A DNA stretch of 63,242 nucleotides, the filler included, from Folioceros fuciformis (taxonomy: Eukaryota), in the NCBI GenBank assembly GCA_049999805.1. It is 4 parts of 3 records of this genome, joined end to end, with 100 filler letters (N's around TTAATTAATTAA, not from the genome) between each part and the next. Parts side by side here need not be neighbours in the genome. Positions count along the whole stretch, not along the records: positions 20,441 to 39,365 come from JBNGIO010005965.1; 3 more parts are not named here. One strand, written 5' to 3'. Below, one piece after another: positions 8,255 through 63,242 of the stretch (its first letter is position 1; each line of letters opens with the position of its first letter). The notes under the pieces were generated by a model. The model saw only the letters and a list, made by a program, of their open reading frames with translations. It had not been told where the DNA came from and did no database searches. A program made the translations under genes and the position numbers.

Positions 8255-9136
8255 TGAATCTGGTTGAGGAGCACAGCCTAGCCTAGGTAGGTCTGTAGCG
8301 GCGATACTATTAGGAGAAGGAGCGCCCCGGCCCCGGGGCGGTGGTAGCGCTACAGCATTGAGGACTACGCATGCAGACCCGAAAGCAGAGGGCACGCAGT
8401 CCGGCAAGCATAAACTTGGGTGCGATATGTGCACTAGCTGCCGTCCATCAGTGTCACAGCACGGTGTGCACCCGAAAGAGGTAGGAGGAGGCGCCTCCAA
8501 TACTGAGGTTTTCGAGAGGGGAAAGCGGAGGGAAAGGGGAAGGAGAGGGCGGAGGGAAGAGGAAGGGAACAGGAGAAGAGGAGAAGAAGAGTGAAGCAAC
8601 GCAGGAGTGTAGACGGGNNNNNNNNNNNNNNNNNNNNNNNNNNNNNNNNNNNNNNNNNNNNNNNNNNNNNNNNNNNNNNNNNNNNNNNNNNNNNNNNNNN
8701 NNNNNNNNNNNNNNNNNAGGCTGAGGGGCGGGGACCAACACACTTGTACTAGGCTGGCAGCGAGACGCGGAGTCCGCGACAGAATGACGACAGGCGTGAA
8801 ATAGTCGGGAGCAGAGCTGACGTATGGCTCCTGCAACTAAGGCGAAGGTGTCACGAGGCTGGCCTGGGAGGTGGACCGTAGGCACTGACTACAGGTTGCC
8901 ACAGGCAAGGGCATTCGGATTTGGGGGTGCCAGGCCTGAGGCTGGCAGGGTGTAGGCGCTACAAATGGCATGGCAGGTGGTTGACTTGGAACATCCACGA
9001 TCCTGACAGCCACCCTGCCTATGGGAGTGTCACGACACAATACGGGGGCACTTTGAGACTGTATGTACGTATGTACGTATGCACCCGTGCGCATCGGACT
9101 TGAACATATGTATGTATGCTCGTAACTACATACATA

Positions 9137-9395
9137 CAGTCCACCCTCCCTAAATGTTACCTGTTGGAAGTAAAGCATTGGGTAACATTTAGGGAGGTCT
9201 AAAAATTAGATAATTTAAATATTTATCAATAATAAAATATTAAAAATTATTTAAAATATCGAACTTATAAAATATATTTGATAAGTTCCATAGGAAATAT
9301 GCAGACACAGTACATAGGTATACGTGTAAGGTCAGGGATCCCCATGTATAGAAATATCTAAAATTAGGGATTAGGGAGGGCCCCATGTCTGACTG
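9137..9395. mobile_element. pogo/Tc1-mariner-derived MITE
   Basis: TA|CAGTCCACCCTCCCTAAATGTTACC... at the left end and ...TTAGGGAGGG(ccccatgtct)GACTG|TA at the right end. AT-rich interior. The first ~65 bp are near-identical to the transposon end at 61103. Confidence 0.75.
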
Positions 9396-14043: not shown

Positions 14044-16245
14044 TATTAAGATATATACCCAGCCCTATCTAGATAGGGATTGAGATATGAACAGTTATTA
14101 GATAAATACAGTTATTAGATAACATCTACTGGCTAGGCAGAAACTAACATTGTTGCAGCTTGGCATAAGAAAGATAAGAAGGCCAGAAACATCATCCTTT
14201 CAGCTCTCTATAGGAATATGATGCAACATACTCAAGGGCAATCAACGACACATGCAATATGGAAAGTCTTTCAAGACATGTTTGCAGCTAATGATTCCCA
14301 TGTCCCTTATAAATTGAACATGCATTTTCTATACACTTCGAATGAAGGAAAATGAAATTGTCGAACATCACATACACCGATTTCGCACCTTGCAAGCCAG
14401 GTTAGCAGCTGCTGGAGAGACCCTAACAGAATTGAAAGCAGCTACAATACTTTTAACCTCATTACCTTCAAGCTACCGGACATTTGTTAGCTCACAAGCA
14501 ACCTTACTTCGACAAGCGGGAGCAAACATTACCTTGTCTAAAGTAGTTGGAGCACTATTAGAAGAGGAATCCAGCAGAATAGGGACTGGAAGATCTTTTT
14601 CATCTAACCAGCAACATGTTTTGTACACTGCTTGTGGAACCCTACAGCTGGATCTGTCACACTACACCAAGAACATTTCATTCGTAAGATTTTAACCAAG
14701 TTTAATTTACAAGACATCAATCCTGTTGCCACCCCAGTTGCAACTGGCGTGAAATTATCACTTGAAGACTGTCCAGTTACTGATGTGGACAAGGCATAGA
14801 TGGCAGCTATCCCTTATCGAGAAGTCGTGGGTAGTTTACTCTACCTAGCCGGATGGACTAGGCCCGACATATCACAAGCTACAGGCGTTGTTTCTTGTTT
14901 CCTGTCAAATCCTGGAAAACGCCATTGGGTGGCTGTTAAACGAATCTTACGCTACTTGAAGGGCACTAGACACCATTGTCTCACATATACCAAGGAAAGT
15001 GATTTCACCCTTACCTGTTTTCAGATGCTGATTGGGTTGGCGATGTTGACAACAGGAAATTGATAGCAGCATACTGTACACTCTTATGTGGGTTAGCAAT
15101 CAGTTAGCAAAGCAAAAAGCTCTCCACAATCAGTCTCTCTTCAACGGAGGCAGAATACAGTGCACTTTCCCTCGCAGCAAGAGAAATAACTTGGATTAGG
15201 TAGTTCCTAGAAGGTATCCACATGCAGCAGACCATGCCAACTACTTTGCAGTGTGATAACCAATCAGCCATAGACCTCTTAGCGAATCCTATCTTCCATG
15301 CACGCTCAAACATATCGAAATACAGTTCCATTATATTCGACAAGCAGTCGAGCAGAAGGTGATACAGCTGGCCTATGTGCCCACAGCACAGAATGTGGCA
15401 GACCTGCTTACTAAAGGCCTGTCCAAGATGTTGCATGAATAGCACAGGTTTTTGCTGGGTCTGCATGAGGACAAGCCCAAGCAGTGACATCAACAACAAA
15501 GTTCTTAGGTTACCTTGCTTAGCGTTAGTACAACCAATGAGCCTACACCGCTTATGCCACCAGCAATCCATCACCTCATCTACAGAGCACAACTCGTTTA
15601 GTTAAGAACCTCACATCACCCGTGCAGCTATACCTGGATGAAGCATCACTAGACAGCAAATCAGGTTAGCAGCAAGTCACTGACACGTACCTTTTTAGGC
15701 AGTAGCTGGGTGCACTCAGCTCTGAAGGCGAGAAGGAACTCCACATCTGTCATGGATGTTCTGTCATGGAATTCAGGCAGTTCCCTTTTTCCCTGGCTGT
15801 AGCGCGCGCACCTCTCCCCTCACCTGGGTGCTCTCTAGTTTTCACTGATCTGTCACAGTTGGGTGTGTTATGCGCCAAGTTTTTGGAGGTGTCAGGATTA
15901 GGGGAGCAGGTATAACAGCGAGGATAAGCTCAAATACGTGGACAACAAGCTCCAGGTCTGAGCTCCAGGCCATCGCTCGTCTAGATCAGGCACAGCTGTG
16001 AGACTGTGAGTGGACGGGGTTGATTGCTCAACGTCTCTCCGCTCAAATCCACTAGCTTGGATAGCTCACACTTGGCGTTTTACATTTTCTATTCATATGG
16101 TTCTATTTAGCATTACTCAATATTACCGAGTTAGGTCTGAGAGGGGGTATTAAGATATATTTGTTTAAATATATTTACAGCCCTAACTAGATAGGGATTG
16201 AGATATGAACAGTTATTAGATAAATACTTTTAGGGTTCTTCCACA
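14044..16245 (+). mobile_element. Internally deleted Ty1/copia element (copia-A)
   Basis: Matching short LTR-like repeats start TATTAAGATATAT at 14044 and 16148 and share AGATAGGGATTGAGATATGAACAGTTATTAGATAAATAC. PPT GAGAGGGGG precedes 16148. Gag (MKENEIVEHHIHRF..LLTSLPSSY) runs straight into late RT (PYREVVGSLLYL..TRPDI) and RNase H (SLSSTEAEY, ADLLTK). Right end approximate. Confidence 0.85.
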
Positions 16246-17137: not shown

Positions 17138-18471
17138 ATGGAGCAGGACAGTGTGAAGTCAACTCTGTACAGGTTTGCTGCTTTAGTAGCTCTTGTTTAT
17201 GCCCCATGCCATATAGCGGCTAGGCTCATAGGGCATAGGCTCAACTCTTCAAAAAACATGGCGTCTTCAGGGTCTGAGGAAAGCACATCTCCTACAAAGC
17301 GGCGCATCTACCAACGGGATCAACTAGGGCGCTTCGCAGCAGCAACAGCTAGAGCAACTGCCTTTGTGGAAAGCGCAGCACATCAACCTGCACAAACAGC
17401 GAGACAGAGTACAAGAAGAGCAAGCAGCTCAGGGCAACCCCAAGGGAGACCCTGAGGCACCACCAGGGCTGTGCTTCAAGCAAGACGATAGGAACCTGCA
17501 TTAGGGACAACGACAGTGGCGGCGGCTGCGTCTTCTCATCATTCCCACTTGACTTCACGCATCAGGACTAGTCAGCCTACAACGACTGCCCCTCAACCTC
17601 GATCCCGCACAACACCGACTACTGCCATGGGAGGTCTGAGGGGCATGTCACGTGAAGACATCCATTCTCGAGCAACAGTAGAATGGCGCCGCTTCAATCG
17701 TGGTGAGTTTGAGTATGCTACTTCTGATCAACGCCCTCATGTTCCGCCCAGGTTCCCAATTCCTGCAAATGTGATGTCAGAAACAAGAATTGTAACCCCT
17801 AGCAATTGGGAGAAGCCCGGAAGTCCTCTCTGGTACAGGTGCACATCTACTGGACTAGTGATGAAACACATTGAGCTACAGCTATGCTGGGAATACAAAG
17901 ATCACATCATAAGTGTCTATAGTAAGTCTTCACACCAACTTACGTCTATTCCTCTGTACTTAAAACAGTTAGTATAGGCAATGTCTTCACACCAACTTAC
18001 GTCTATTCTTCTGTACTTAAAACAGTTAGTATAGGCAATCTGATTGTTTCCTTTGTGTTTGACCTGGAAAGGTCTTAACTCCTTGTTGACCTGTGTCAAT
18101 TGTCTGTGAATCATACTCCCATTGTCTACCAAATAGGATCTGAAGATAGATTGGAAGAAGAGAACAGCCTCGACATAAAGGAGAGAATTTCTTATTAGGA
18201 GAGGAGGAAAAGGTTTTCTCCTCGCAATGAAGATGAAACTTTCTCTTCAAAGTCTGTGGACCGTGACTCCTGGGATAAATATGATGATTCAACAAGCTCT
18301 GAGAGCAAGAGATCTTTCCAATCTCCACCAGGAAATTCAGGCAATGATGACAGTAATGACTGGGGTTGTAACTCGCTTGGTTGGCTAGGTCTTAGACATG
18401 GTAGTGGGGCTGCCTTCATGGCTCCCCATGCCAAGAACTTTCATGTGCTTTTCGTGAAGTTCCCTTCCTAG
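17138..18471 (+). pseudogene. Antisense accessory gene of copia-B (spliced, 3 in-frame stops)
   Basis: One frame from 17138 to 17921 with stops at 17453 and 17489. Intron 17922-18136 (GTAAGT...AATAG). Exon 2 reads RSEDRLEEE with a stop at 18196 and then continues in frame. Homologous to the ORFs at 24390 and 62109. Confidence 0.8.
17926..18039 (+). repeat. 57-bp tandem duplication inside the predicted intron
   Basis: GTCTTCACACCAACTTACGTCTATTC...TAGTATAGGCAAT occurs twice with 1 mismatch. Confidence 0.95.
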
Positions 18472-19690
18472 GGACTTAGTTAAAATGTCTGCTGGGTTTT
18501 CAGCTGTTGGCACATACTCCAGATCAATCTATCCAGATTTGATCAAGTCACTTATGAAGTGGTATTCAACTTCCACATGTTTGGTTCTAGAGTGAAACAC
18601 TGGATTGTGAGCAAGACTCATTGATCCTTGATTGTCTATTTTTATTGTGCTGCAGGTTGGAAGTGGTAATCCAAGCTCCTTGAACATCAACTTACACCAA
18701 GCAATTTCCTTTGCAGCAGCTGTAAGTGCATGATACTCAGCCTCTGTACTTGATAAAGCCACAGTAGGCTGTTTCTTACTAGACCAGCAGATTGGTCCTC
18801 CAGCTATCCTTACTACATAGCCGAAAACTAACTTTCGTGTATCTATGTCCCCAGCATAATCTGAGTCTGTGAAGACATCTAGTTGCAGAGGTACTCCAGG
18901 TATATTTCTATTCCTTATGCTAATGTTATGAGTGCCTTTTAGATATCTGAAAACTCTTTTAACACATGTCCAGTGTGTTTGGCCTGGATTTTCCAGATAC
19001 TGGGAAAGCACACTCGTAGCATAAGCTACTTCTGGTCTTGTAGTATTTGCAGCATACATAAGTTTTCGTACAGCTTGTCTGTAGGGTACTGATCTCATTT
19101 GATCCTGTTGTGTTTGTGTGTCAAGATACATTGACTTGCTCATTTTCCGTCCACAAGGTAAAGGAGTAGCTGATGGTTTGGCATCCTTCAAACCAAGTTG
19201 TTCAGCATTATTTAATAGGTATAGTGGTTGTGTTAAAGTAATAGTCCTTTTTGGCCTGTCATGCTGAATCAATATACCAAGGCAACTTTGTAGAGCACCT
19301 AGGTGTCTCATCTCAAACTTAGTTGATAACACCTTGTTTATGTCTTTGATGAAAGTAGGACTGTTAAAGGCCAATATGAGATCATCTACATATATAGCCA
19401 GGTAACATACTACAACTTTAGATCTGCAAACATATAAGCTTCCATCTGAGACACATTTAACAAAACCTAGGGATCGCAGTTCTTCATCAAAAACAGCATT
19501 CCACTCAAGGGCAAATTGTTTCAACCCGTACAGGGTTTAATCAGGTGTAAGACATAGTCTTCTTTTCCTTTCACCTCCTGCCCAGGTCGTTGTTGCATGT
19601 AAATTTCAATGTCCAGTTTTCCATGTAAGAAAGCTATCTTTACATCAAACATATCTAACTCATAATCGTAGTGTGCTGCAAGTATAGGGT

Positions 19691-20340: not shown

Positions 20341-20440
20341 NNNNNNNNNNNNNNNNNNNNNNNNNNNNNNNNNNNNNNNNNNNNTTAATTAATTAANNNN
20401 NNNNNNNNNNNNNNNNNNNNNNNNNNNNNNNNNNNNNNNN
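20341..20440. other. Artificial contig linker N44-TTAATTAATTAA-N44
   Basis: Six-frame stop oligomer centred in a 100-nt N spacer; identical at 39366 and 61802. Confidence 0.95.
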
Positions 20441-23400
20441 AAAATGGGAGTCCCGAAAGTTTTTTTCCTCTACAGTAGCCCAGGGAAATTGAGCACATAC
20501 CATCACAGATTGTGCATCTCTTAAAGAGGCCTTGAAGAAGCAGTTCCAACCTGCAAATGCTTCGCGTTTGAGCTGGCAACTGCTTGATAATATAAAGCAG
20601 AAAAGTATGTGGGATAAGTACCATTACCAGATATTTGCCATGCTCTACCTTTAGTGAAGCTGTTATGCATTGTACTTCAATGAGTGAAGTTGACAAACTA
20701 CATCGCTTCATGGTTGGTTAGAAGAAATGGGCTGCTAACAGAATTGAGTTATATAGTCCAATGACCTTGGCAGAGGCCATAATAGCAGCAGATGCTATCC
20801 CAAATACCTTTCATTCTACCACATCCAACTCCTCACGAAGATTTCGAGGTAATACCTGTGGACGGTATATGCAGACTCGGGTTTCTTCTAACAGTGGTGG
20901 CACAGGAACTCCCAACGATAATGAAAGAAGTACAGTTGCAAGAGGCAACTCAAGTGGGAGCTTGTGTGGGAGAAATCGAAGAATGCGTAGGGTGCGCGGA
21001 GCTCAGAGAACTGTGACAATGGGTTCTCGGAAAGGAGTTTTTTTTTCTTGTGGAGAGCCAGGACATTATGCGAATGAATGCCCCAATGCTCAACAAAATT
21101 TGAACGTTGTTCAAGACAACCCACAACCCCAAAGACTCAGGATTACAGAAGTATCCGGATTTGACAATCCCAAGTGACGGGATTGGCCACATGTTGCACA
21201 GGCTACATGTGGTGAGTCTCAAGATGCTGAGGACAGCATTATTCATAGGGCGGGTGGAGAGCTCATGTATATAGAAGGATGTGTGAATCGTGAAGAAGCA
21301 AAGATGTTGCTTGATCTAGCAGCAACACTTAATTTCATTTCTCCTGGCAGAGCAAGTAAGCTTGGTTTGACATTGGTTAGTACTTTAGAGCCATGTACAG
21401 TGAAACAAGCAAAAGGAAAGCTGCAGTTCTTAGGACAGCTGCAAAAAGTGCCTTCGCAGATAGGCAATTGGACAGGAGAAGCAAGCTTCACAATTGTAGA
21501 TATGGATGATCATGAAATCATCTTGGGCTTAGAATGGATGAAGGCCAATAAGGTATGTGTAGACGTGGACTCACACACCATACAAATCTTAGGAGATGAA
21601 AAGCACAAAGTGAGTTGTGCATTTCTTGAGCATCAGCTTGGACACAAGATTGATGAAGTCATCTCTAAGAAAGCTCAAGCGTTGTGTTAGGAATGAAGAG
21701 GAACTTTATATTTTGGTGTTGCAAGGACTAGAAGATGGTCTTGAGATGGAGTCTCAAAAGCAACCAAAGATTCCAAAGGAGATACAAGCTCTCTTATACA
21801 AGTTTAAAGACTTGATGCCTACTGCGTTACCTCCTTTACCTCAGAGGAGAGTTGTAGATCATGAGATTGATCTAAAGCCAAGAAGTGTACCGCCTTCAAG
21901 AGCGCCATACAAATTGTTTCTAGATGAGCTTCAAGAGTTGAAGAGACAAATGTCTAACTTGTTAGCCAAGGGCTATGTTAGAGTCTCGAAATTCCCATTT
22001 GGTGAGTCAGTATTGTTTACGCGTGAGAAGAATGGAGGATTAAGGTTATGCTTGGATTACAGAGCACTCAACCAAATAACAATCAAGAATTCCTATCCAT
22101 TGCCAAGGATGGATGATATGTTTGACAGGTTGAAAGGTGCTAAGTATTTTGCCACACTAGATTTGATGGCTGGTTATTACCAAATTCACATTGCAGAACA
22201 ACATGAATACAAAACTGCTTGTAGGACAAGGTATGGATCTTTTGAATTTCTTGTCATGCCATTTGGACTCACTAACGCACCAGTCACATTTCAGACTCTC
22301 ATAAATACTATATTCAGAGATTTTTTGGATGAGTGTGTTGTGATCTACTTGGATGACATTTTGATATACAGTTCTACTTTAGAGGAGCATGTCCAACACT
22401 TGAGGAAAGTGTTGGAAAGGTTAAGGGCAAATTCCTTGTTCTTAGCTATAACAAAGTGTGACTTTGTTAAGGAAGAGATAGACTTCATTGGATTCATTGT
22501 CTCTGTTGATGCAATCAGAATGGATCCTGATAAGGTAAAAGCTATACAGAGTTGGCTACCGCCAAGCAATGTGCATGAAGTGCCTATGTTTTTGGGATTA
22601 GCTAGCGTGTACAGAAGATTTGTACCGATGTTTGCCAAAATTGCTACCCCATTAACTGATCTCTTGAAGAAGGCAAAGGCTTGGAAGTGGGATGAAAAAT
22701 GTCAAAGGACATTCGAGTTTCTCAAGTTGAAACTCAGCACTACCCCAGTATTAGCAATCTATGATCCAAAGAAAGATATAAAAGTGTATACTGATGCGTC
22801 AGATATAGCTATTGGAGGAGTGCTTATGCAAGAAGGTAGGCCAACAGCTTACGAATCAAGAAAGTTGCATGAACATGAGAGGAAATACCCCACATATGAG
22901 CAAGAGATGACAACCTCAAGATTGTCTCAAGATTTGGAGACACTATCTTCTTGGAAGATCTTTTGTGCTGTACACAGATAATGTAAGTACAAGCTTCTTT
23001 TCTAATCAGCTGCGACTTAATGTAAGACAAGCTAGATGGCAAGATTTCCTAGTGATGTATGATATGGAGATTAAGTATAAGCTAGGGAAGGAGAATCTCG
23101 TGGCAGATGTTCTCAGTCGCAAGCAGGAGTTGAGGTTAATATCTGTTTTTAAGCTAAAGAATCCTAAGCTAGCTGCAACACAGATGGTGATTGAGCCAAG
23201 GGACACTCACACGCAAATTAAGGAGGCTTATCTGCGTGATCCATTAGTGCAAGATTGGATCAATTAAATGGAGCAACCAGGGTCTAAGTTTAAGCTTAGA
23301 AATGGCTTGTTAATGTCCAAGCAAAACAGGATTGTGATTCCTGATTCTCAAGAGTTGAGAAGAAAATTGCTTGCAGAATGTCACAATGTGCCAAGTGCTG

Positions 23401-23921
23401 GTCATCGGGGAATTGACACAACTTATGAGAAGTTGAAGAAGCTGTTTTACTGGCCTGGAATGTACAACCATACTGTAGAGTATGTGAAGTCTTGTGTAGA
23501 CTGTCAGCTGGATAAGGTAGAGCAGACAAATCCACGAGGTTTGTTGCAACCCCTGCCTCTTCCAAGTGGGCCTTGGAAGAGTATATCAATGGATTTTGTT
23601 ATGTCGTTGCCACCCAGTAATGGATACACAGCTATCATGACAGTTGTTGATAGGTTCAGCAAGCAAGCACACTTTATCCCTACGAAGAAGCAAGTGAAGG
23701 CTTCAAAAGTTGCTCAATTGTTTAAGAAGCATATCTATGTGTTACATGGATTACCTATGCAAATTGTGAGTGATAGAGATCCCATATTCCCAGCGGAATT
23801 TTGGCAATAGCTTATGAAGAGCTTGGGAGTGCAACTATGTTTAAGCACAACATATCACCTTGATACAGATGGATCTACATAAAGGGTAAACATAATCCAA
23901 GAGGAATACTTACGACATATG

Positions 23922-24189
23922 TGATGGAAATCATGGGCTAAGCTCTTGAGAAGGAGATTCTTATATGACAATTGATTTAACACAAAATACAAAGTCTATT
24001 TATAGGCAAGGTGGTTAGGAGGTTAGGTGGTTACAACCATAAGTTGTTGTAACCATCAGGTAGTTATAACTACCCTAACCTCTAACTACCTAGAGCAATT
24101 AACCAATAACTACTTAATGCCCAGGTAAATAATAATGTTTAAGTTAGATACCCTAGTGAATAGTGCCCTAACCCTAATATATTTCATTA
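23922..24189 (-). repeat. 3' LTR of copia-C
   Basis: Direct repeat of 31430-31698; reads TAATG...ATCA on the minus strand. Confidence 0.95.
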
Positions 24190-24389
24190 CTCCCACTCAC
24201 TATGAACGTAGGTGAGAGAACTACCTTTAAAATGAGGCCTAAAATGTCAATAGACTCCCACTAAATAACAAGCTATCAGCCTAAGAAAAATAATAAAAAA
24301 CTTAAGCTATGAAAAGGAAGATGGAAATAAGTTTAAGAGCCTAAATAAGTTTTCAAGCCAACTTAAACTAATCAAAAAAAGTTTTTTTA

Positions 24390-25859
24390 ATGAAAATACG
24401 GCTTGGTACAGGGTACGCCCCGTCCACGTTCGTATCGTGGGGGGTACTCTCGGCAGTTATTGCAGCACCGGTCTTCTTCCGTAAAATGCGGAGGCCGAGG
24501 ACGGGACCTCCAAGTTGCTGCAGGATGGTAGGCCGCGACGCAAGGAGCACACACGCGCAGCGCCGTGCCATGGGAGTGCGCCAGAAGGCGCGCCCGCATC
24601 ATGCGAGCGCCCAGCGCCGCGACGCACGCGGTAAGTTTGCCGCGGGTCAGCGAGCCGGGGCGCTGGTGGATGCGCAATCTGCCCTTCGTAAGCAATCCTT
24701 AGGTGCTCCTGGTGTCGGGGAGCAACAGAAACACAGACGTCTTGCCACCTTCCCGGTGAGTGCTAAAGGTCAGTATCCTGCATCCAGACCAAAATAGCTA
24801 TTAAATCGTGATGCCTGTGTTGCCTTAATCTTGTTCTTCTCCTGTGAAGGTAAACGGGAGTTGAGGGGACATAGCCGATCCTCCACTGCCTCCCGTAGCA
24901 GAAGTGAGGACACTGAGAGAGCAAAACAGCCACCACATCTAGCTTCCTTATTCAAGCCTCCACCGATTGTCTGCATGTCGACGGATTTGGAAGAAATGGA
25001 GGTGTCCAGCCGTGCTGCGCATAAACTTGCAAAATCACCAATTGTTGAGCAGCTTGTTGCAGGGGAGCCTATTGCTAAAGGAAGTCCCTCATGGAGGGCG
25101 CGTGCAGTGCGTCGAGAAGTGTTTCTTCATCCTGAGCATACTGAAAAACTTCAAAGCTGCGCCTCAAGTAAGTAGCTCATGTCTGAAATTTCAGTCTGCA
25201 ACATAAAATTGGACTGACATTTCCTTGTGGTTGATGGGATATGAGGAAATCCTTAAGGAAGTAAGGATTGCGGATGGGAGGAAAGTGGACCAAAATAGGG
25301 AAAAGGAAATAGGAAAAGAAAAAACACGTAAGAGTGTTTAGGAAAACAAAAAAAACTCTTACTATACTATCCTATTTATGTGGTTTGGTTTATTAACCTA
25401 TAACTAAGTTGTATTTCCCTTATTTTAGGCTTAGATAAAAGTATTGGGACTAGAGGTGTAAAGGTGGCAGTCCCGGTGAAGCCTAGCTGTGGAAAAAGGA
25501 ACACATATGAGATCCCGGATTCTCTATTGCCTAGAGCTGATCTAGCCAAAAATGTGTATTTAATATGTCTTGGGGATATGGAAAATGCAGAAACCCCGGA
25601 GGAGTATACATGCCAACAAACAGGCATTCATATGGTGTGGCTAGGTTGTAAGCCATGTGAGGAATATGAGGGGCATACAAAACACATCTATTGTGAGTGC
25701 CCTAAGTGCCACAATTAAATTGCATTTAATTAGTACAAAATCTACTTATATGTACTAGGTTCATTTTGGAAACTCAGCGAGGAAGATAGAGAATACTATG
25801 AGGACTGTGTAGAAATAGAGGGAGAACTTAATGAATTGGACATAATACTTGACCCTTAG
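24390..25859 (+). CDS. Antisense accessory gene of copia-C, predicted 4 exons (24390-24768, 24850-25167, 25429-25692, 25759-25859), ~293-353 aa depending on the ATG
   Basis: Three phase-1 GT-AG introns (AAG|GTCAGT, CAA|GTAAGT, ATT|GTGAGT) join the exons into one stop-free frame. AATAAA at 25893. Motifs RRDARGKFA and YTCQQTGIHM..CEEYEGH..Y|CSFWKLSEE are shared with the other two copies. Confidence 0.75.
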
Positions 25860-25908
25860 GAGATCAAGGCACTTTTTTTTTTTTTAATGCCCAATAAAGT
25901 TTTTCTTC

Positions 25909-28900
25909 TTAATCAACCAAGGTTAGGGTGATTTCACATACACTATGCCTAAACTTCTCATGTGTTTGTTTTGTAAATCTTTTCCTAAAGACTTAGTTAG
26001 GATATCAGCTGGGTTCTCATGGGTTTAGACATAACTTATGTTTATTGTCTTACTTTCTAGCATTTCTCAAATGTAGTGATATTCAATGGCTATATGCTTG
26101 GTCCGAGAGTGAAAAACAGGGTTTCTAGCTAAGGCTATGGCTCCCTAGTTATCACTAAATAGAGGAGTGGGATCATTCTGAGGATGACCAAGTTCACTTA
26201 AAGCTAACCTGCTCCAGACAATATCCTTGGAAACTGAGGTCAGTACTCTATACTTGAACTCAATACTTGAGAGGGCAATGGTTGGTTGTTTCTTACTTGA
26301 CCATGATATGGGTTCTCCTCCCAGTAGTAATATGTAACCAGATATGGACTTGCGGGTATCAGGATCGCCAGCATAATCAGCATTAGCAAATGCTGCTAGA
26401 ATTAACTTCGGGATGCCGGGTCGATGCTTAAACATTAATCCAGTGTGCATAGTGCCTTTGAGATATCTGAATATTCGTTTGACAGGTACCCAATGTTCTC
26501 GTCCAGGGTTTTCCAGAAATTGGGAACATGCACTAACTTCAAAGAAGATGTCTGGTCTTGTGAAATTACTTAAATAAATCAAGGTCCCCACGGCATGTCT
26601 ATAAGGGACTGCTGACATTTCTTATTTTTCCGCATCTGTTTGAGGGCTCATAGCTTTAGTGAGCCGAATGCCACTTGCAAATGGTGTAGTGGCTGGCTTA
26701 GCATCTTCAAGTCCAAACTTGGCTAAGCTTTCTTTTATGTACTTAGTTTGTACTAAGATTAAAGTTTTGTTGCCTCTATCCCTTATTATATTTACCCCAA
26801 GGGCATAAGTCATCTCTCCTAAATCGGTCATTTCAAAATGACTTCTTAACCATGCCTTGGTTTCAGCTAAGAGAGAGAGTGAAGATGAGGCCATAAATAA
26901 GTCGTCAACATAGAGCAGGAGATATAAAATATCACTACCTGATTTCAATATGTACATGCTAGCATCTGCCTTACTTTGTATGAAGCCTCAGTTAACTAGC
27001 TTGACATGTATGACGACGTTCCGTTCTTTGCCTGATTGCTTCAGGCCATAAAGGCACTTAATGAGTTTGCATACCCAATCTTCCTTTCCCTTGACCTCAT
27101 AGCCTTCTGGCTATTTCATATAAATTTCTTCTTGTAGACGCCCATGCAGGTATGCTGTTTTGACGTCCATCATATGAAGGTATAGGTCATATTGTGCGGT
27201 TAAGGCGAAGATCATTCTTAGGGAGGCAAACTTGGCAACTGGTGCATAGGTGGCCCAGGGTATGTAATCTAAACCAGGTATCTGGGTAAACCCTCTTGCC
27301 ACTAAGCGTGCCTTATATCTTTCTATGGAACCATCACCCTTTCTTTTTATTTTGAATACCCACTTGCTAGTCACTATCTTTCTTCCCTTAGGTGGTTTCA
27401 CTAATTCCCATGTAGAATTCTTAAGTAATGAGTCGTACTCAGAATCTACAGCTACTTTCCACAAGTCTTTCTCAGGAGAGGAAAATGCTTGTTTTAAGGT
27501 TTGTGGCTCTTCGGGATCAACTGTCGCTTTGTATACAGCTTGATGATAAGGTGAAAAGGGAGAAACTAGATCATCTAGGGTAGCAAGGTATCCAAGGGGT
27601 GGTTCCTTCCATCCTGCAGGTCCTGGAATGTTAGGTCTAGTTCTCAGGTTGTACCTCAAAGCAGGTTGTTGTTGTAGAATATTTTCTTCAATGTCGACTT
27701 CTTCATGAGCTGGCTCTTCTGTTGGTGAGTTAGGCTTATCTTTAGGCTTGTCTTTGAGCTCGTCCTCATGCACAATTCATTCAATCTCGGGGATAATAAA
27801 GTTGTCCTTGAGATGATAGTCATCCTCCAAGTGGAGAGGTTCTTGTCCGTCGGGATCTGGTGTAGTAGGTCGACATGGAATATGTTCTAACAGCTCCTCC
27901 TCCTCCTGCAGAGTAGGTTCAACAAAAGGAACGCTCGTAGCAGGGAGTGGATGAAGGGTGACAAATTCATCATCATCAAAAGATGAGGACTCCGTGTGCA
28001 CTCCGAAGGGAACAGCGAGAGTGGCAGGAGCTCCCACTGAAGGGGAAAGTAAAGAGGACTCATGAAAAGTCACGCTCCTGGCATATGTAATTTTCCTAGT
28101 GGACGGGTGGAATAACTTGTATCCTTTGATGCCTTCCGTATAGCCAATAAAAGTGTACTTGGCTGCCTTATAGTCTAACTTCTTGCGTTGTACTTTGGGT
28201 ATAAAAACATACGCAGGTGACCCAAAAATCCGAAGATGTTCAATGGAGGGCTTTCTATCAGTGAGAGCTTCATAAGGTGTTATACTTGGGACTGCGGAGG
28301 TGGGCAGTCGATTAATAAGATACGTTGCTGTCATAATGGCCTCGGCCCAATAACTCTTGGATAGTTGGGCTTGAGTAAGCAAGCAACTAGTGATCTCTTG
28401 TAGGCGTAAATTCTTATTCTCTGCGACGCCATTTTGTTGAGGAGTGTGTACCACAGTGAGTTGCTGAGCTATACCTTCAACTCGGCAAAAATCAGCAAAA
28501 TTATTGGATGTGAACTCGCCACCATTGTCGGAACACAATGTTTTGAGTTTCTTATCCGTAAGTCTCTGTGCCCACATCATGTAATCCTTGAAAAATTGAA
28601 AGGCCTGGCTTTTGTGTTTCAGGATATAGGTGAGCACAAAACGAGAGTAATCATCAATGAAGGTTAAAAAGTATCTGCAACCACTAAAGGAAGGGGCAGA
28701 AATGGGGCCACAAATGTCTGTATGAACCAACTCAAGAGGTGTTGTGGCCCGCTGTGGAGATGGGTTAAGAAAAGGAGCTTGGTGCCGTTTTGTGACAACA
28801 CAGGCTTCACACCAAGACAGGGGTTCTATCTTGGAGAGGGAGGGTGATCTATAAAAATTTCCCTTAGACATTTGGATCAGCTTTTGGCTATTATGATGAC

Positions 28901-31322
28901 CTAAACGGCAGTGCCAAAGCATAGTATGGGAGGAGGTGGTAGAATTTTGGGAAGCTACATTGATGAGATGTGAGGGACCCACTTGGACTGAGAGTTTATA
29001 TAGTCCATCTTCTAGTGTACTTGAGCAGATGGTGTGCGGCTTACTTGATAGATAAGAAAGAAGACAAATATCTGCTTGGAGGATAATTTGCATGCTATGT
29101 TCTGAACACAAACTAGCAGTTGACACTAGGTTTTTACACATGGATAGTACATGGAGGACATGAGAGAGAGAGAGAACTTGGCCTGAAGAGAATCTGAGAA
29201 CAATTGAACCTACACCAGAGATTGTGAGGTTATGATCATCGCCCACTAGGATAGTTTGATGTCCTGTAGCTGGCAAGTAAGACTCAAAAGAGTTTATGTT
29301 GTGACAGATATGAGATGTAGCACCACTGTCTAAATATCAATATTGGTTGGATGGCTTGGATGATGCCAAGCATACAGTGAGTGCTGCTGGTGTTGCTGAG
29401 GTCTTTTTCTTCACAGCAACATTTGCTCCAGGGTAGCCTCCTTCTTAGGCTCGCCGTTCTTCTTCTTGTAGCAGTCCTTCTCCATATGATTCGGTATCCT
29501 ACACCAATTACAAATAACTCCCGCCTTCTTCTTACCTCTTGCAGGTGTGGAAGAAGCGCATTCTCCATCGAGAGAATTAGGATTTGGCCTAGGAGAAAAG
29601 GGTCTACCGCGGCCTCGGCCACGCCCTCTTCCTCTGCCTCGTCCTGTAAACATCACCTACTGTCTGATAGATCGCGGATTCTCTTGTCGACGACTGGCAT
29701 TCTCCTGTATAATGGCTCCAATTAATTCATCAACGCTGATATCCAGCGTATTGGAGCCAGTTGCATTCATTTCTTTCTGTGCGGCTCTAAGGACAGCATT
29801 TTGTGTTGTCACGAAGGACCTATAGGAGGGTGGTAAGGAGGCAAGGAGAGCAATAAAAGCTGCTTTCTCGGTAAGTTTCTCGTCAAATGATGCTTCGAAA
29901 TTATTCTTGGCAACACGGAAAGCAGTGATATGATGATCAATGGANNNNNNNNNNNNNNNNNNNNNNNNNNNNNNNNNNNNNNNNNNNNNNNNNNNNNNNN
30001 NNNNNNNNNNNNNNNNNNNNNNNNNNNNNNNNNNNNNNNNNNNNGTGATATGATGATCAATGGAGTCATTCTCCTTCATTCTCAGGTTATGGAGATGACG
30101 GGTAGCGGTCAATAAGCTCATCCCGTCTTTAGAAGCATATAATTGAGCTAGACGCTCCCACGTATTATGAGATGTGCCGGCTCCTAAAACTTGGCGTACC
30201 ATGAATTCGGTTAGACCTTGAAGAAGGATATCTCGGGCCCTTAAGTCCTTAGCATCCCATTCTTCTTGTTTATCTTCGTCCTAAAGGTGTTTGGTCTCGG
30301 TTCCTCAATATTCCATAGGCCATGACTACGTAACACTCCTTGTGCACGATCTTGCCATACATCATATCCTCTTCCATTGAATCTATCTTTCTCCTTAAAG
30401 TTATGTGCTTGAATCAAAGTGGTGGACTTTGATTCATAATTAGCCAACTTCTTCTTCTCCTTCTCTTTGAACTTTTCAAGTTCATCTTGTCATTTGGCTC
30501 GCTCTTCTTCGAGCCATAAAGCCTTTTGGGCTTCAATATATCTTGCCTTCTCTTCTGCAATTTCTTTCTCGACGGAGAAGTCTACTCGGTCAGACATTGC
30601 ATGTGTGTTTATTGATGCAGATTACGCCGTCCTTGACACGACGACTTCCCGCTTGTATTAGCAGCAAAGAAGTGTGAAAAATTATAGCATTTCTTCAAAG
30701 GGGAATCATCTGCATGGTCATCAAAATTTGCAGGCTTACAAGAAAGTGAGTTGGATCTATTGGCTCTTGGGAGGACTGGTTCTTGAAGATCGTCGGTGAT
30801 TGAATGTAATTGATCAGTGAGATAATTCAATCTATCATTAGTAGCAGTATGAAGAATTCTGGCTTCTGGTCCAATGGAATCAAGAGATTGCTGCAGATGA
30901 TATGGATTAGGAGTGAAGAACTTTGGCCTATGCTTCATATACTTAAAAATAGTTGACTCAATGGCGCTAGATTGCAAAAGGTCAAAGGAAGTTAGGAGAT
31001 CTTTGCGAGCGTGATTTATGTTACCTACTCTATCTCCAAACTTAGAGATAAGGGCTTCTATGAGACGACATACTTGTGCTTCAACAACATCAATTTCAAG
31101 GGCATTGAAATCAAAGTTTTCCTCTTGAATTGCAAAGAGTCTGGGTTGTTGTTGTCTCTTCTTCTTCGAAGCCTTGATCTTCCTCCTATACTCTTGCTTG
31201 CTGGGATTGATGAAATCCATAGGAGGGGGCAAACAAGAGGTGAATGCACAAAAAGTGCATCCTTAAAGTATTGTGCTCCACTCAAGTTGGTTACTATTCA
31301 AAACGAGGTCTCCATGCTCCAT
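25909..31322 (-). pseudogene. copia-C gag-pol, disrupted
   Basis: Gag knuckle CNWCRIPNHMEKDC, GAG-pre-integrase WHCRLGH, integrase (HTDICGP, SDNGGEF), RT (YKARLVARGF, YVDD) and RNase H, split by several in-frame stops (e.g. 29657, 27777, 27111, 26622, 26145). Confidence 0.9.
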
Positions 31323-31429: not shown

Positions 31430-31698
31430 TGATGAAAATCATGGGCTAAGCTCTTGAGAAGGAGATTCTTATATGACAATTGATTTAACACAAAATACAA
31501 AGCGTATTTATAGGCAAGGTGGTTAGGAGGTTAGATGGTTACAACCATGAGTAGTTGTAACCATCAAGTAGTTATAACTACCCTAACCACTAACTACCTA
31601 GAGCAATTAACTAATAACTACTTAATGCCCTAGGTAGATAATAATGTTTAAGTTAGGTACCCTAGTGAATAGTGCCCTAACCCTAATATATTTCATTA
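31430..31698 (-). repeat. 5' LTR of copia-C
   Basis: Direct repeat of 23922-24189, adjacent to the PBS. Confidence 0.95.
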
Positions 31699-33172
31699 AG
31701 ATGGACCAGAGAAACTGGAGTAATCATCTTGAGGATGCAGAGTTTTATTATAACAATATTGTACATAGCTCCATAGGCTATACACCTTTTCAGATGACAG
31801 GTAACGAAGCAATGGACACAACTTCCATGTTGAATGTTGGAGTGTTTGAGACAGCAGCAAGAGAACCACATAAATTTATTAAGCAATTGAGGGCCAGACA
31901 AATTTTGGCCAAAGCTCAAGACAGACAAAAGAAGTTTGCTAATAGGCACAGGAAAGAGGCAGAATTTCAAGTGGGTGACAAGGTTTGGGTAAAGTTGAAG
32001 CACTTCCCAATACCTCAAGGACTGTCCCCAAAGTTAAGGCCTAAGTATGGAGGTCCTTTTGTAGTTTTGAAGCACATTGGAAATGTGGCTTACAAACTAC
32101 AACTGCCTAATTGGATCTTCTCTCATGATGTGTTTCATGTCTCTTTGCTGAAACCATTTGTGATTTCGAAAGAGAATGAAGACATGAACAAGAAAGACTA
32201 TGTTATCCTGGTTCAATATAACCATAGTTTGCAGGAGATTGTTGAATTCCTAGCAGAAAGAGAAGTGCTTTCTGTGCATGGTAATGTTCTAGAGTATCTA
32301 GTAAGGCTTCATGATTTTACAGATCCTGTCTGGGTTTCACTTCAAGATGTGCAACAAGGATCATGGATGATCTCACGTTATACTACAAGTCATTGAGGAC
32401 AATGACATCTTCCTAGTGGGGGAGAGAGTAATGGCACAAGTGAAATAAGGTGAAAGTAAAAAGGTGAAAGCTAAATCTAGAGCTGTCTTGATGAAGAAGC
32501 AAGTATGCTTCTTGTTGCCTTTGGAAACAAGATTTGTGTTCCAGGCAAAACCTCCTAAGAAGGATGGAGTTGTAATGACCACTAGTATTCTGATATGAGT
32601 AGTGTGTATCATTCCCAGCTTTAGCAATGGCTTAGCTGTGGAGTATAAATAGGCTAGTGTTAAGGTCTTAAGGATATACACTAATACACGGATACACAAA
32701 GAGACAAAGAGAGAGGCAGACAATGAGAAGTCTAGCCTTGAGATATAGTTGTGGAGAGCTTGAAGAGCAAGCTTTTCAGATTGAGACTAGAGCAGTAGCT
32801 AGTGGGGAGTAGATCACCAGACTCTTTTGTAAGTATATGAAATAAATAGCAACACCTAGAGGCGGTGGTCTGCGAGTCGTCNNNNNNNNNNNNNNNNNNN
32901 NNNNNNNNNNNNNNNNNNNNNNNNNNNNNNNNNNNNNNNNNNNNNNNNNNNNNNNNNNNNNNNNNNNNNNNNNNNNNNNNNCTTCCTTTTACGCTGCGTA
33001 AGGAAGGGGTGGTACTCTGCCTCCACTTTCGATTAAGATGGGCAAAGACAAAAAATAAGAGAGATCTACCCAGGTGCACCACCTAACGTCTTTGAAATCC
33101 TGTGAACAGCTTCAACTGTTCATAATCTGAGATTTTTTTCACGAAAAAAATCAGACTTTTCAGAAACAACCA

Positions 33173-39365: not shown

Positions 39366-39465
39366 NNNNNNNNNNNNNNNNNNNNNNNNNNNNNNNNNNN
39401 NNNNNNNNNTTAATTAATTAANNNNNNNNNNNNNNNNNNNNNNNNNNNNNNNNNNNNNNNNNNNN
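39366..39465. other. Artificial contig linker N44-TTAATTAATTAA-N44
   Basis: Same structure as at 20341. Confidence 0.95.
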
Positions 39466-60800: not shown

Positions 60801-61102
60801 AGCGAGACGTGAAAACGAAGTGCAGCATCTTGACGTCCGAGCCGAAGTCAATTTTGAAGACTAAAATAAACAATACTGTAACCAGGTCAAGAGCTCAAAC
60901 TATCCAACAGCTGCACAAAATCTCAAATCTATATGAGATTATTGCGACTACATCTCGAGCTCCGCGCCATTGCAGCAATCCCAGCACATGAGGTAGTGGA
61001 TCCGCAGCGGTTACCAGTCTTTCCAACGAATCCCGCATTCTGCAAGTGTGTCAACGTGACAACCATTGTCAATAAGCTGGGCGATTCCATCCAACCGGAA
61101 TA

Positions 61103-61901: not shown

Positions 61902-63242
61902 AACTAATCATAACCAGCATATACTAATTAAACATCCTTCATTCAATACTCCCACTTGCTGGTGATGATTCAAACATGTGCTTCAGCTACCCTTCGTACC
62001 CCTGCATCAAACGGCACTTCAACTCTCAGACCTAGTTCTCGATTACTCCCCAACCACTTACGGCCGCCACATGGATCTTGCGGAGCGCACACCGCTGGGC
62101 GTAATAAGATGGTACCACGATGTGCCGCCCTTATATTCTTGGTGTTCTTCATTGTCAGAATCATCTGTGAGCTTCTCGACCTAGAGATCGCCAAGCTGCT
62201 CATCATCACCACCATGTCTGATTCTTCGGATTCTGATCGGATCACTAGGCGCCGCCACCGCCGAGATGCTTTAGGTCGATTCGCGCCAAGGACAGCTACC
62301 ATTGAGAGTGAGCGTAGCGGGAAGATGGGAGCTGTGACTGCAATCACCAAGCCGAAGGTTGGGCGGCCGTTGGGAACCACCAAGGCAGTTCTGGAGAAGC
62401 GCAAACTTGCTGCGCTGAAGACTGAAGCTGAGGCGCCTGGTCCGTCCGACTTGCAGCCGCGCCCTAAGACACTGCCAGAGTCCAGCGAGAGTGACGAAGT
62501 CATGCCCATCATCAGGACTCTGAACCTAGATGTCGCCTACTACCATCATGCTGAAAGCAGTCACCTTCCTGTGAAGTTGCCCAAGCCTGTGAACTGTCAG
62601 ACTGAGACCAAGCTCGTGACCTGTGGCACACTTGCGTATCCTTGCTCTCCTGTCTGATATAAAGTCTGGGTTGGCTTAGAGAACTTGCTAATGAAAAGGG
62701 TGAAGGTGCAGCAAAGCAGGTGCTTCGAAGGCCATGTTGTGAGCTTCTACAGTAAGCCCCTGCCTTTGATTTCTTTTTGTTGTTGCTGTTCCTACAGGTT
62801 TCCTTGTGCTTTGATATTTCTTGACCACTGTCTGCAGGTTTCCGTGATCTTTGGAACCTGCTAACATATCTTCTTGGCTATAAATACAGGGTCTGCCCAG
62901 AGGCTCAGTGAGGAGTGGAGGCTGATAAAAAAAAAAATTAAGAGAAGCCACGAGGACTGAAAATGAGAACACTCCAAGTTCCACTGCCCGAACGACGTCC
63001 CAGCTACACCATCAAAGATGAGTCCACCAACGATATCATCCAGTTGGGGGTCGCAATAGAGATAGAAGAGGTTTCTGACTCTGATGGTTCCATCTCTTCG
63101 GGCTTCTAGTTAGTTTGAGTATTAGTCAGAACTGTCCAGGAGGGCTTCTGCCTCTCCCATGCCCAGACGTTGCATGTGTCTGTGGTGAGCATCTCTGCTC
63201 AAAGACTTTGTAAGTATGTCCGCCGGGTTGTCTTGAGTCGGA
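61902..63242 (-). mobile_element. Ty1/copia element 3' end (copia-D)
   Basis: RNase H end PTQDNPADILTKSLSRDAHHRHMQRLGM at about 63155-63242. PPT AAGTGGGAG at 61949-61957, followed by LTR start TATTGAATG. Confidence 0.85.
62109..62960 (+). pseudogene. Antisense accessory gene of copia-D (spliced, TGA at a Trp position)
   Basis: RRDALGRFA, GRPLGTTKAVL, ETKLVT..SPV*Y..MKRVKVQQSRCFEGHVVSFY. Intron 62752-62889 (GTAAGC..CTAAC..TACAG), then RSAQRLSEE. Confidence 0.8.

Follow-up and report, generated by a model that had tools for sequence, protein, structure and literature searches.

Three diverged Ty1/copia elements in a 63,242-nt stretch of Folioceros fuciformis DNA (hereafter the window, i.e., the whole stretch analyzed) each carry an antisense gene that is interrupted, at the same codon and in the same phase, by what their sequences suggest is probably a real and ancestral intron. 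These elements are likely to represent a Ty1/copia lineage with an antisense accessory gene that has its own convergent, GT-AG-spliced mRNA, and whose introns are kept through replication since they would be unspliceable in the genomic RNA. Relative to the known antisense extra open reading frames (ORFs) of Ty3/gypsy elements, the host (Ty1/copia) and the intron-containing structure of the gene are new. The sample comprises three copies only, located on three separate contig pieces.

Host elements and their antisense genes

The three copies (copia-A, copia-B, and copia-C) are minus-strand elements, all of them old, and the pol proteins of A and B share 44.6% identity over 334 aa. In each copy, a plus-strand gene (A, B, or C) sits opposite gag-pol, between the 3' LTR with its polypurine tract (PPT) and the pol stop. 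For copia-B, Pfam domains on the minus strand follow the order gag-INT-RT that is characteristic of Ty1/copia elements (Table 1), and the best identities of its integrase ORF to longer proteins were 35-47%, none of them providing a lineage name. The LTRs of this copy have TG..CA ends, measure 265 and 266 nt, and are identical at 254 of 265 aligned bases (K2P 0.043); self-BLAST returned the pair as 23922-24189 and 31430-31698 with 95.5% identity. A purine-rich tract complementary to 24189-24200 lies beside the 3' LTR of copia-B, and the motif ACTCCCACT occurs exactly at 17012 (A), 24189 (B), and 61948 (C), each time immediately inside the LTR end. It should be noted that the 13 window-wide matches to this motif at one mismatch or fewer are at chance level, so that it is informative by position alone. 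Directly after the 5' LTR of copia-B, at 31429-31418, stands TGGTATTAGAGC, a putative primer-binding site that we take to resemble initiator tRNA-Met. No 5-bp target-site duplication is visible at the copia-B flanks (..CATATG and TTAAG..), which could be explained by the old age of the copy or by recombination.

Gene B, once its three phase-1 introns are removed, is an intact four-exon ORF of 293 codons, while the pol of the same element is broken. The gene (24570-25859) is flanked by the LTR, which ends at 24186, and by the pol stop at 25923-25925, the position occupied by antisense extra ORFs, and 63 nt separate the pol stop from its own antisense stop. If intron 1 is left in, a stop is met at codon 76. 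The conserved cores of the three genes described in the initial annotation are upheld by the present analysis, but the genes extend further toward the N-terminus than had been recognized, as indicated by the motif RRD.LG+FA that is common to A, B, and C and is found 15-19 residues past an in-frame ATG. Exons of the antisense genes span 34-221 codons, and the introns recognized number three in copy B and one each in A and C. Three in-frame stops are present in gene A, and gene C has one in the core and more in the tail; these two genes are pseudogenes that are incapable of making protein now. Protein identity among the antisense genes is approximately 25-30% versus 44.6% for pol, indicating faster evolution than that of pol. 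Genes A and C share a stretch with GRP that received no Pfam call; it may be AT-hook-like and is treated as a candidate lead only.

Table 1. Positions in the window of the copia elements, their antisense genes, and the mapped transcript contig.
Feature	Position	Strand	Basis or remarks
Gene A upstream exon, motif QRDQLGRFA then core	17258..17921	+	ATG 17258; in-frame stops 17453-17455, 17489-17491
Gene A intron, 215 nt, phase 1	17922..18136	+	TAT A|GTAAGT..ATAG|G; acceptor AG 18135-18136
Gene A downstream exon, to TAG 18196-18198	18137..18198	+	Same frame open to at least 18400
pol of copia-A, RT/RNase H end	18392..19536	-	RVT_2; tail ..NPADILTKSL..; start approximate
3' LTR of copia-B	23922..24186	-	Self-BLAST; TG..CA on plus strand
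Complement of polypurine tract at LTR junction	24189..24197	+	Motif ACTCCCACT; exact matches in A, B, C
X1 contig, 983 nt, depth 23	24501..25564	+	Mapping to window; 0 mismatches; 24769-24849 skipped
Gene B exon 1, motif RRDARGKFA	24570..24768	+	ATG 24570; in-frame ATGs also 24486, 24525
Gene B intron 1, 81 nt, phase 1	24769..24849	+	GT..AG; absent from X1 contig
Gene B exon 2	24850..25167	+	ORF model
Gene B predicted intron 2, 261 nt, phase 1	25168..25428	+	CAA|GTAAGT..TTTTAG|G; GC 0.34; retained in X1 contig
Gene B exon 3, conserved core, ends Tyr + 1 nt	25429..25692	+	Similarity to A, C
Gene B intron 3, 66 nt, phase 1	25693..25758	+	TAT T|GTGAGT..CTAG|G; GC 0.32; AG 25757-25758
Gene B exon 4, acidic tail (12 D/E of 33)	25759..25859	+	Translation; stop TAG 25857-25859
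AATAAA, 34 nt past gene B stop	25893..25898	+	Motif
gag-pol of copia-B, several stops inside	25923..31262	-	Pfam order; C-terminal tail located
RVT_2, copia-B	27111..27776	-	Pfam
rve with gag_pre-integrs, copia-B	27777..29336	-	Pfam
Retrotran_gag_2, copia-B	29657..30280	-	Pfam
5' LTR of copia-B	31430..31695	-	Self-BLAST
Gene C upstream exon, motif RRDALGRFA then core	62214..62751	+	ATG 62214; in-frame TGA 62655-62657
Gene C intron, 138 nt, phase 1	62752..62889	+	TAC A|GTAAGC..ACAG|G; AG 62888-62889
Gene C downstream exon, to TGA 62958-62960	62890..62960	+	Translation; run of 11 A
pol of copia-C, 3' end, runs off window	63123..63242	-	Similarity of pol tail

A probable intron at one codon of three antisense genes

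As had been proposed, the ORF ends in all three copies with a Tyr codon, one further nucleotide, and GT(A/G)AG, which was confirmed both by direct reading of the coordinates and by script. When the AGs originally named are taken as acceptors, the frame and the similarity are restored in A, B, and C (RSEDRLEEE, CSFWKLSEE, and RSAQRLSEE, respectively), with translation from the split codon yielding xSxx[RK]L[SE]EE in every copy. The intron lengths of 215 (A), 66 (B), and 138 nt (C) given in the initial annotation are likewise correct, as is the placement of all three in phase 1 at the same codon. A 57-bp duplication that had been assigned to the copia-B intron does exist but lies inside the intron of the copy at 17.9 kb (A), where 17926-18039 comprises two tandem 57-bp units with 98% matches. 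All three introns have GT-AG ends and acceptors of the form YAG|G (TAG|G, TAG|G, and CAG|G). The last exon base ahead of the donor, usually G, is A, T, and A in A, B, and C, respectively. Plant introns have a typical length range and are U-rich and GC-poor relative to exons; the three introns are plant-like in length and composition, with GC contents of 0.38/0.32/0.41 (A/B/C) versus 0.48/0.43/0.55 for the upstream exons and T contents of 0.36/0.33/0.42 versus 0.24/0.24/0.22. Unspliced read-through meets a stop in each copy, and the donor is kept as nucleotides (xGTRAG) while the residues encoded by read-through differ (SK, CE, and SK). Alignment of the introns of A, B, and C to one another did not rise above shuffles, whereas the flanking exons do align.

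Candidate acceptors were defined as AGs located 50-400 nt downstream and followed by nine codons without a stop (n = 24, 11, and 22 for A, B, and C), and acceptor triples were scored by a three-way BLOSUM62 sum-of-pairs. The top score among all triples was 54 and belonged to exactly the acceptors named earlier. That score was reached by 0 of 500 shuffles (mean 18.4, maximum 42) and by 3 of 400 triples drawn at random from the real sequence of the window, and the two wrong phases scored 15 and 22. Downstream similarity past the first approximately nine residues is not significant, other frames included. On the upstream side, homology stops exactly at the Tyr in each pairwise match; the upstream exon yields E 6e-8 window-wide for A and C and E 0.003-0.005 window-wide (3e-6 pairwise) for A and B, and the comparison of B with C by this exon alone is not significant. 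In the plus frame, the cores contain 0, 0, and 1 stops (A, B, and C), and in each other frame two or more of the three copies have stops. Identities by codon position (A-C 56/69/35%, A-B 44/52/31%, B-C 72/67/28%) are compatible with coding but biased, and were not counted as a test because amino-acid similarity guided the choice of blocks and the wobble position is the same in the -2 frame.

Transcripts, relatives, and competing explanations

Three public runs were listed, one of which (X1) contains 0.49 of the words and is of a type that was guessed ("RNA?"). A contig from this run joins 24768 to 24850 on the plus strand over the 81-nt GT..AG of intron 1, thereby fusing two ORFs in frame; as aligned, the joint falls at 24765/24847 with the cut shifted by +3, and five shared letters flank it. 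Because the contig skips a GT..AG intron and the ORF stays open, it points to a plus-strand spliced mRNA of copy B. Alternatively, the joint may be an 81-bp deletion in DNA, flanked by the five shared letters, rather than a splice. The separate spliced antisense mRNA postulated at the outset is in this way supported for intron 1 of copy B, in a run of guessed type, with the junction of the shared intron falling outside the contig, which ends at 25564, 128 nt upstream of 25693-25758. Among the mapped reads and contigs, none spans 25692/25759, 17921/18137, or 62751/62890. The contig keeps the predicted intron at 25168-25428, leading to a stop 67 codons past the ATG at 24975, and due to this retention the assembled isoform cannot join exon 2 to the core. 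It starts at 24501, 312 nt into the element as counted from the LTR end; cover in the mapped runs is absent over 24003-24406 (the LTR side) and 25565-26700, which is uninformative either way.

Word searches for relatives returned zero candidates with the A core as query and, with the A+B+C alignment, 328 candidates (proteins of 47-307 aa), of which 0 had E<=0.01. Three HMMER matches to a 61-position core profile among 1.84 billion representatives were all tandem-repeat proteins and were judged spurious. Pattern matches to the gene B core in metagenomes numbered 365, scans of viral contigs and of prokaryote genome contigs gave 22 and 11 pattern matches, respectively, and none of these was confirmed. 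The C-terminus of copia-B pol gave 592 matches in metagenomes, including 489 relatives, the best 80 of which share 38-49% identity with it. When pieces of the core and tail were compared by tblastn with these best 80 of 489 copia loci, no match fell below E 0.017, and the match at that value is meaningless, its query having been one base out of frame. The antisense gene is present in 3 of 3 related elements of the window and in 0 of the best 80 of 489 metagenome copia loci, 46 of which have at least 1000 nt downstream. A Pfam search with every piece of A, B, and C at E up to 10 found nothing except a sub-cut-off match to DUF5818 (E 0.14), with Transposase_28 (PF04195), SMC, and bZIP domains absent, and Rfam gave 0 matches in the window. 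The best ESM Atlas score was 0.86, which is under the level treated as more than a lead, and an AlphaFold2 model of the gene B core from a three-row alignment was unusable (mean pLDDT 35.3), providing no confident fold. No paper on an intron-containing antisense gene in plant copia elements was found; the additional files of one study (PMC6317226; papers given by PMC number are cited from excerpts), which were outside that search, may list reverse-oriented ORFs.

In the reading preferred here, the accessory gene would have an mRNA of its own, transcribed convergently to pol and spliced at canonical GT-AG introns. The replicative RNA of the element, as the complement of the gene, would present CT..AC to the spliceosome, blocking removal, and reverse transcriptase would then copy the unspliced introns into each daughter element. 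Of the phase-1 introns, the one that follows the conserved Tyr would be ancestral to A, B, and C, and B has two more. The product of gene B would consist of a basic N-terminal half carrying RRD.LG+FA, the conserved core, and an acidic tail encoded past the shared intron, and the accessory mRNA would be fully complementary to the genomic RNA. Occupation of the same codon in the same phase, despite a pol identity of 44.6%, argues for inheritance through many retrotransposition cycles, and such inheritance would be expected only if the minus-strand genomic RNA cannot splice out an intron with CT..AC ends. The suggestion that the intron survives because it is not spliced from the genomic RNA thus gains partial support. 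Splicing of the shared intron, translation, and any function of the product are what we infer from these patterns, and a nuclear regulator of the element would be a guess as to the product. A broader proposition is that an undescribed plant Ty1/copia lineage depends on a conserved multi-exon antisense gene for a small nuclear regulator (basic N-terminus, new core domain, and acidic tail) that is expressible from DNA copies only since introns make the genomic RNA unreadable, with introns even gained within the element and the gene overlooked by long-ORF surveys given its short exons; taken as a whole, this is tentative and somewhat improbable.

Among the alternatives, a spliced non-coding antisense RNA would pair with the genomic RNA (acting by way of dsRNA, of small RNAs, or of impaired reverse transcription), in which case the ORF likeness is a vestige that is being lost and it is RNA processing that preserves the intron. 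This role has been put forward for LTR-element antisense RNAs (PMC7264820), and it would accommodate the ORF-truncating intron retained in the X1 contig, the stops in A and C, the failure to find a protein family, homolog, or confident fold, and the complementarity of the transcript to the genomic RNA along its whole length. It is nonetheless unlikely, given similarity at the amino-acid level in a single frame despite the 44.6% identity of pol, a conserved phase with the frame resuming past the intron, an in-frame splice in the X1 contig that eliminates a stop, and the 293 open codons that B retains across its four exons. Considerably less probable is that the gene is a passenger, acquired by an ancestral copia element in a single reverse-orientation capture of an intron-bearing host gene and transmitted since then without any benefit to the element. 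Introns would suggest an origin at the level of DNA rather than RNA, LTR elements are documented to capture genes (PMC7264820), and the faster evolution of the protein (approximately 25-30% identity versus 44.6% for pol) is also consistent with a passenger, but neither the 1.84 billion representatives nor the word searches yielded a host homolog. Further, transduced ORFs are described as occurring in one or a few copies (PMC7264820), whereas the gene occupies the same place in three deeply diverged families, a depth at which a useless gene should be decayed beyond recognition. Finally, that there is no intron, the ORFs ending at read-through stops and the nine-residue likeness and GT/AG being coincidence in acidic GA-rich sequence, can scarcely be credited: the downstream match is short and noise past approximately nine residues, 3 of 400 real-sequence triples equal its score, and the X1 contig stops short of the junction, but GTRAG in 3 of 3 copies, a YAG|G acceptor, and the right phase would all have to coincide independently at a single aligned codon, no shuffle of 500 attains the score, composition changes at both boundaries in every copy, and another intron of gene B is removed in the X1 contig.

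Parallels in other retroelements and implications

Antisense extra ORFs have been described in plant Ty3/gypsy elements of the Tat/Retand group, including gene23 of maize Grande, rice RIRE2, Silene Retand, and ORF2 of bean (PMC7264820, PMC11963269, PMC4093653). Like the copia genes, these lie between pol and the 3' LTR in opposite orientation, are kept across families, and lack an assigned function in the excerpts. A promoter of its own lies upstream of Grande gene23, and the X1 contig of copia-B likewise starts inside the element and not in the LTR. The hosts of the former are gypsy elements rather than Ty1/copia, and the Retand/Tat proteins carry Transposase_28 (PF04195), whereas the copia antisense proteins carry neither this domain nor SMC. 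Moreover, the copia gene is split by introns, which the excerpted text of two reviews does not mention for extra ORFs (PMC7264820, PMC11963269). Of 65 copia families in bean, 63 are without an extra ORF and the remaining two have sense env-like ORFs (PMC4093653).

Spliced antisense genes are known from the deltaretroviruses, namely HBZ of HTLV-1, APH of HTLV-2/3/4, and AS1/AS2 of BLV (PMC10186651). As in the copia elements, they are near the 3' end, are carried by RNA complementary to the genome in both spliced and unspliced forms, and have introns that survive replication (PMC10186651). Their transcripts start in the 3' LTR (PMC10186651), whereas the copia-B contig starts at 24501 and cover is absent over 24003-24406, although the latter is no proof of absence. 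HBZ is a bZIP protein (PMC10186651), while no bZIP was found in the copia products. The deltaretroviral hosts are vertebrate retroviruses, and the host here is a plant retrotransposon. HeT-A, a telomeric non-LTR element of Drosophila, reportedly also gives rise to spliced antisense transcripts. The same has been described for Drosophila telomeric TART (PMC1636488). Both resemble the copia genes in having intron-containing antisense transcripts of a retroelement but are non-LTR elements, and the excerpt of the TART study assigns no conserved protein to these transcripts (PMC1636488).

Retrotransposition reporter cassettes rest on the rule that only an intron in sense orientation to the RNA of the element is removed before reverse transcription (PMC12786077). 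They are a mirror case, in which the intron is sense, lost on transposition, and engineered, whereas the copia intron is antisense, kept, and natural. The Ogre elements have a sense spliceosomal intron in the genomic RNA, which survives since a fraction of the transcripts stays unspliced (PMC6317226). Ogre and the copia genes share a spliceosomal intron in an LTR retrotransposon and partial splicing, but the Ogre intron is in the genomic RNA, whereas the strand of the copia intron would make splicing of that RNA impossible.

Copia elements have been called structurally uniform except for the sense ORF of SIRE (PMC6317226, PMC11963269), and surveys of extra ORFs have sought long uninterrupted ORFs of at least 250 codons (PMC6317226) or at least 600 bp (PMC11963269). 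With exons of only 34-221 codons, an antisense gene of the kind reported here would be invisible to such surveys. A 2020 review of extra ORFs asks that antisense and spliced transcripts receive attention (PMC7264820), and the copy B locus, for which one spliced contig is already public, makes that call directly testable. The findings suggest that a retroelement can retain an intron-containing accessory gene over many rounds of reverse transcription, such that "intron-containing" does not rule out "spread by reverse transcription", and they would illustrate, in nature, the strand rule on which engineered reporters rely. An intron held at one codon across such divergence is, at the level of sequence, an argument for the importance of the gene to the element.

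Host elements and their setting in the window

The window is plant nuclear DNA with host genes and nested LTR retrotransposons, and runs of N occur in it at eleven places. Three of these (20341-20440, 39366-39465, and 61802-61901) take the form of 44 N, 12 letters, and 44 N, and the 12 letters at 61846-61857 (TTAATTAATTAA) hold a stop codon in all six frames. This form makes the window look like separate contigs joined together, with adjacency across the gaps being artificial. Because the three minus-strand Ty1/copia elements that carry a plus-strand antisense gene (copies A, B, and C) lie on three different pieces, their closeness in the window is meaningless. A 1262-codon stop-to-stop frame (5048-8836, minus strand, GC 0.55-0.59) without a Pfam family crosses two 100-N gaps and thus may be an artifact of N read as X. 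A common 129-bp stretch (9134-9259 and 61100-61227, 83% identity) occurs on two distant pieces and is adjoined by an extremely AT-rich simple-sequence tract (61180-61340).

The element that contains copy B, copia-B, is complete and runs on the minus strand; its domain order is copia-type gag, integrase, and RVT_2, and TGGTATTAGAGC directly follows its 5' LTR. Several stops interrupt its pol, whose end at 25923-25925 is separated by 63 nt from the antisense stop codon. The copies A and C, cut off where their pieces end, have the same layout as B, and in both a minus-strand pol tail (..NPADILTKSL..HM..LG..) comes after the antisense gene. The pol sequences of A and B are 44.6% identical over 334 residues, and the integrase region of copia-B is only 35-47% identical to the best database polyproteins. 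A, B, and C are deeply diverged families that probably belong to one lineage. Next to the LTR region of A, on its upstream side and in opposite orientation, is another copia pol fragment (14653-15311, plus strand) that shares about 40% identity with pol of A; no homolog of the antisense gene was detected beside it.

Features of the window and of the three copies
Feature	Position	Strand	Detail
bHLH gene	4275-5339	-	
Rrn7/TAF1B-like gene	42318-44128	-	
PPR gene	44543-47140	+	intact, 865 codons, E motif
Malectin-like receptor kinase / malectin-like domain gene	55949-57461	-	at least 2 exons
Plain N runs	5116, 8618, 29945, 32882, 50415		
Split Ty3/gypsy element	20722-23810 and 31638-32396	+	
copia-B LTRs	23922-24186 and 31430-31695	-	254/265 bases identical, K2P 0.043, TG..CA ends
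ACTCCCACT, complement of the polypurine tract	17012, 24189, 61948		at LTR junction of A, B, C
N-terminal block			QRDQLGRFA (A), RRDARGKFA (B), RRDALGRFA (C); starts 15-19 residues past Met
Gene B exons (model)	24570-24768, 24850-25167, 25429-25692, 25759-25859	+	three phase-1 introns
Gene B introns	24769-24849, 25168-25428, 25693-25758	+	81, 261, 66 nt
C intron	62752-62889	+	138 nt
AATAAA	25893		between gene B stop and pol stop

The insertion of copia-B split a Ty3/gypsy element that lies on the plus strand and has zf-CCHC, protease, RVT_1, RNase H, and integrase domains. Contigs of X1, a public sequencing run, match this element at about 92-96% identity, and one from another gypsy copy continues past 23917 with sequence like that from 31700 onward, across the copia-B insertion point. 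A second gypsy fragment of the same family (50924-52159, minus strand) is 79-86% identical, and tandem repeats with periods of roughly 100-230 bp (50341-50769 and 52095-52442) lie in or beside it.

Antisense gene and its probable shared intron

The antisense gene is larger than the initial annotation stated, as tblastx of the three spacers revealed another conserved block close to an in-frame ATG. This N-terminal block is in one frame with the core, the conserved coding block upstream of the shared intron, in both A and C, where the frame is broken by stop codons only, two in A (17453 and 17489) and one in C (62655); these are dead copies. In B, the block sits in an upstream ORF and the core is exon 3, and joining the modeled exons produces an intact 293-codon ORF, basic in its first half and acidic at its end. 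Stops in the plus frame of the core number 0, 0, and 1, versus stops in at least two copies in each other frame, which settles the coding strand despite a shadow match in one minus frame (tblastx). No intron is present in A or C where B has its first two, suggesting intron gain inside a retroelement or intronization of coding sequence. Phase 1 applies to each of the three gene B introns; their lengths and that of the C intron are divisible by three, and an in-frame stop lies inside each of these four introns.

The core was said to end in a Tyr codon, one nucleotide, and a donor in each copy, and this arrangement was seen in all three (GTAAGT at 17922, GTGAGT at 25693, and GTAAGC at 62752), with upstream homology likewise ending at the Tyr in all pairwise alignments. 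The acceptor AGs (18135-36, 25757-58, and 62888-89) are preceded by a pyrimidine and followed by G in 3/3 copies, and translation from the split codon reproduced the three spliced strings reported initially (motif xSxx[RK]L[SE]EE). An AG 50-400 nt downstream counted as a candidate acceptor if the next nine codons were free of stops in the donor-set phase (24, 11, and 22 candidates); among all of these, the originally proposed acceptor triple had the top three-way BLOSUM62 score, 54. None of 500 shuffles reached this score (mean 18.4, maximum 42), and the two wrong phases scored 15 and 22; of 400 triples drawn at random from real sequence of the window, 3 did so, with a maximum of 81 that is presumably due to repeats. 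Upstream similarity had an E-value of 6e-8 for A-C in a window-wide tblastn and of 0.003-0.005 window-wide (3e-6 as a single comparison) for A-B, and was not significant for B-C by itself. All three introns have lower GC and higher T than the preceding exons, and reading through them meets a stop in every copy; compared with each other, they gave no alignment above shuffled controls. The 57-bp tandem duplication previously placed in the copia-B intron does exist (17926-18039), and its seat is the intron of the 17.9-kb copy.

Probable transcript evidence for copy B

The read index lists three runs, only one of which, X1, has part of the stretch; none of the runs listed as containing it is recorded as RNA, and that X1 is RNA is a guess. 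In the region compared (23700-26700), a 983-nt X1 contig (depth 23, 0 mismatches) spans 24501-24765 and 24847-25564. Its joint slides over five shared letters, with canonical GT..AG on the plus strand only at +3, and the skipped sequence is intron 1 of the gene B model; removal of this intron joins two ORFs in frame, and its retention leads to a stop at codon 76. The joint could instead derive from a DNA deletion allele, which is unlikely given its canonical ends, the pyrimidine tract before the acceptor, and cover limited to the gene. The contig is therefore taken as a spliced antisense mRNA from this locus or an identical copy, lending some support, through another intron of the gene, to the separate spliced antisense mRNA initially proposed. 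It ends 128 nt upstream of the shared intron of B and retains predicted intron 2 (GTAAGT..TTTTAG followed by G, GC 0.34), such that the assembled isoform is unable to connect exon 2 with the core.

Known systems and possible roles

In plants, Ty3/gypsy elements of the Tat/Retand group are well known to carry antisense extra ORFs in the interval from pol to the 3' LTR (PMC7264820; PMC11963269; PMC4093653), and two reviews of such ORFs do not contain the word "intron" (PMC7264820; PMC11963269). In bean, one study assigns antisense ORF2 to 15 gypsy families and 0 copia families (PMC4093653). A large survey of plant elements considered only ORFs of at least 250 codons and presents copia elements as uniform save for the sense ORF of SIRE (PMC6317226). 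Spliced antisense RNAs are known from deltaretroviruses (PMC10186651) and TART (PMC1636488). The main-text literature searched describes no plant copia element whose antisense gene has an intron; reverse ORFs in copia may be listed in the supplements of the large survey. Unlike the Transposase_28 group of antisense proteins, the copia antisense product does not have that domain, which places its gene outside that group. We consider the antisense extra ORF to be already known in kind and its intron-bearing form in plant copia to be new.

That the strand of an intron governs its removal before reverse transcription is textbook knowledge, and engineered reporters exploit the mirror image of this rule (PMC12786077). 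Given the divergence of pol, the shared intron is probably older than the split of the three families and thus would have passed through very many cycles of reverse transcription. Such a history is consistent with an intron that the spliceosome meets on the antisense transcript only; in genomic RNA its ends are CT..AC. The proposal that antisense introns survive reverse transcription is in part borne out by conservation across the three families. The data directly show this conservation, the anatomy, and the one spliced contig; that the shared intron is spliced, and that the product is translated and has a function, is inferred. The main weaknesses are that the sole contig stops short of the shared junction and carries a retained intron, that two of the three copies are dead, and that relatives come only from inside the window; with these weighed, it seems fairly likely that the intron is real, ancestral, and spliced, and that the antisense accessory gene holding it is coding.

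Pfam, a protein database, and structure prediction yielded no protein family, homolog, or fold for the antisense product. Its charge layout and an analogy with the nuclear gene23 protein of Grande (PMC7264820) lead to the guess that it may be a nuclear regulator. Since the transcript is complementary to genomic RNA throughout, a role at the RNA level is possible as well.
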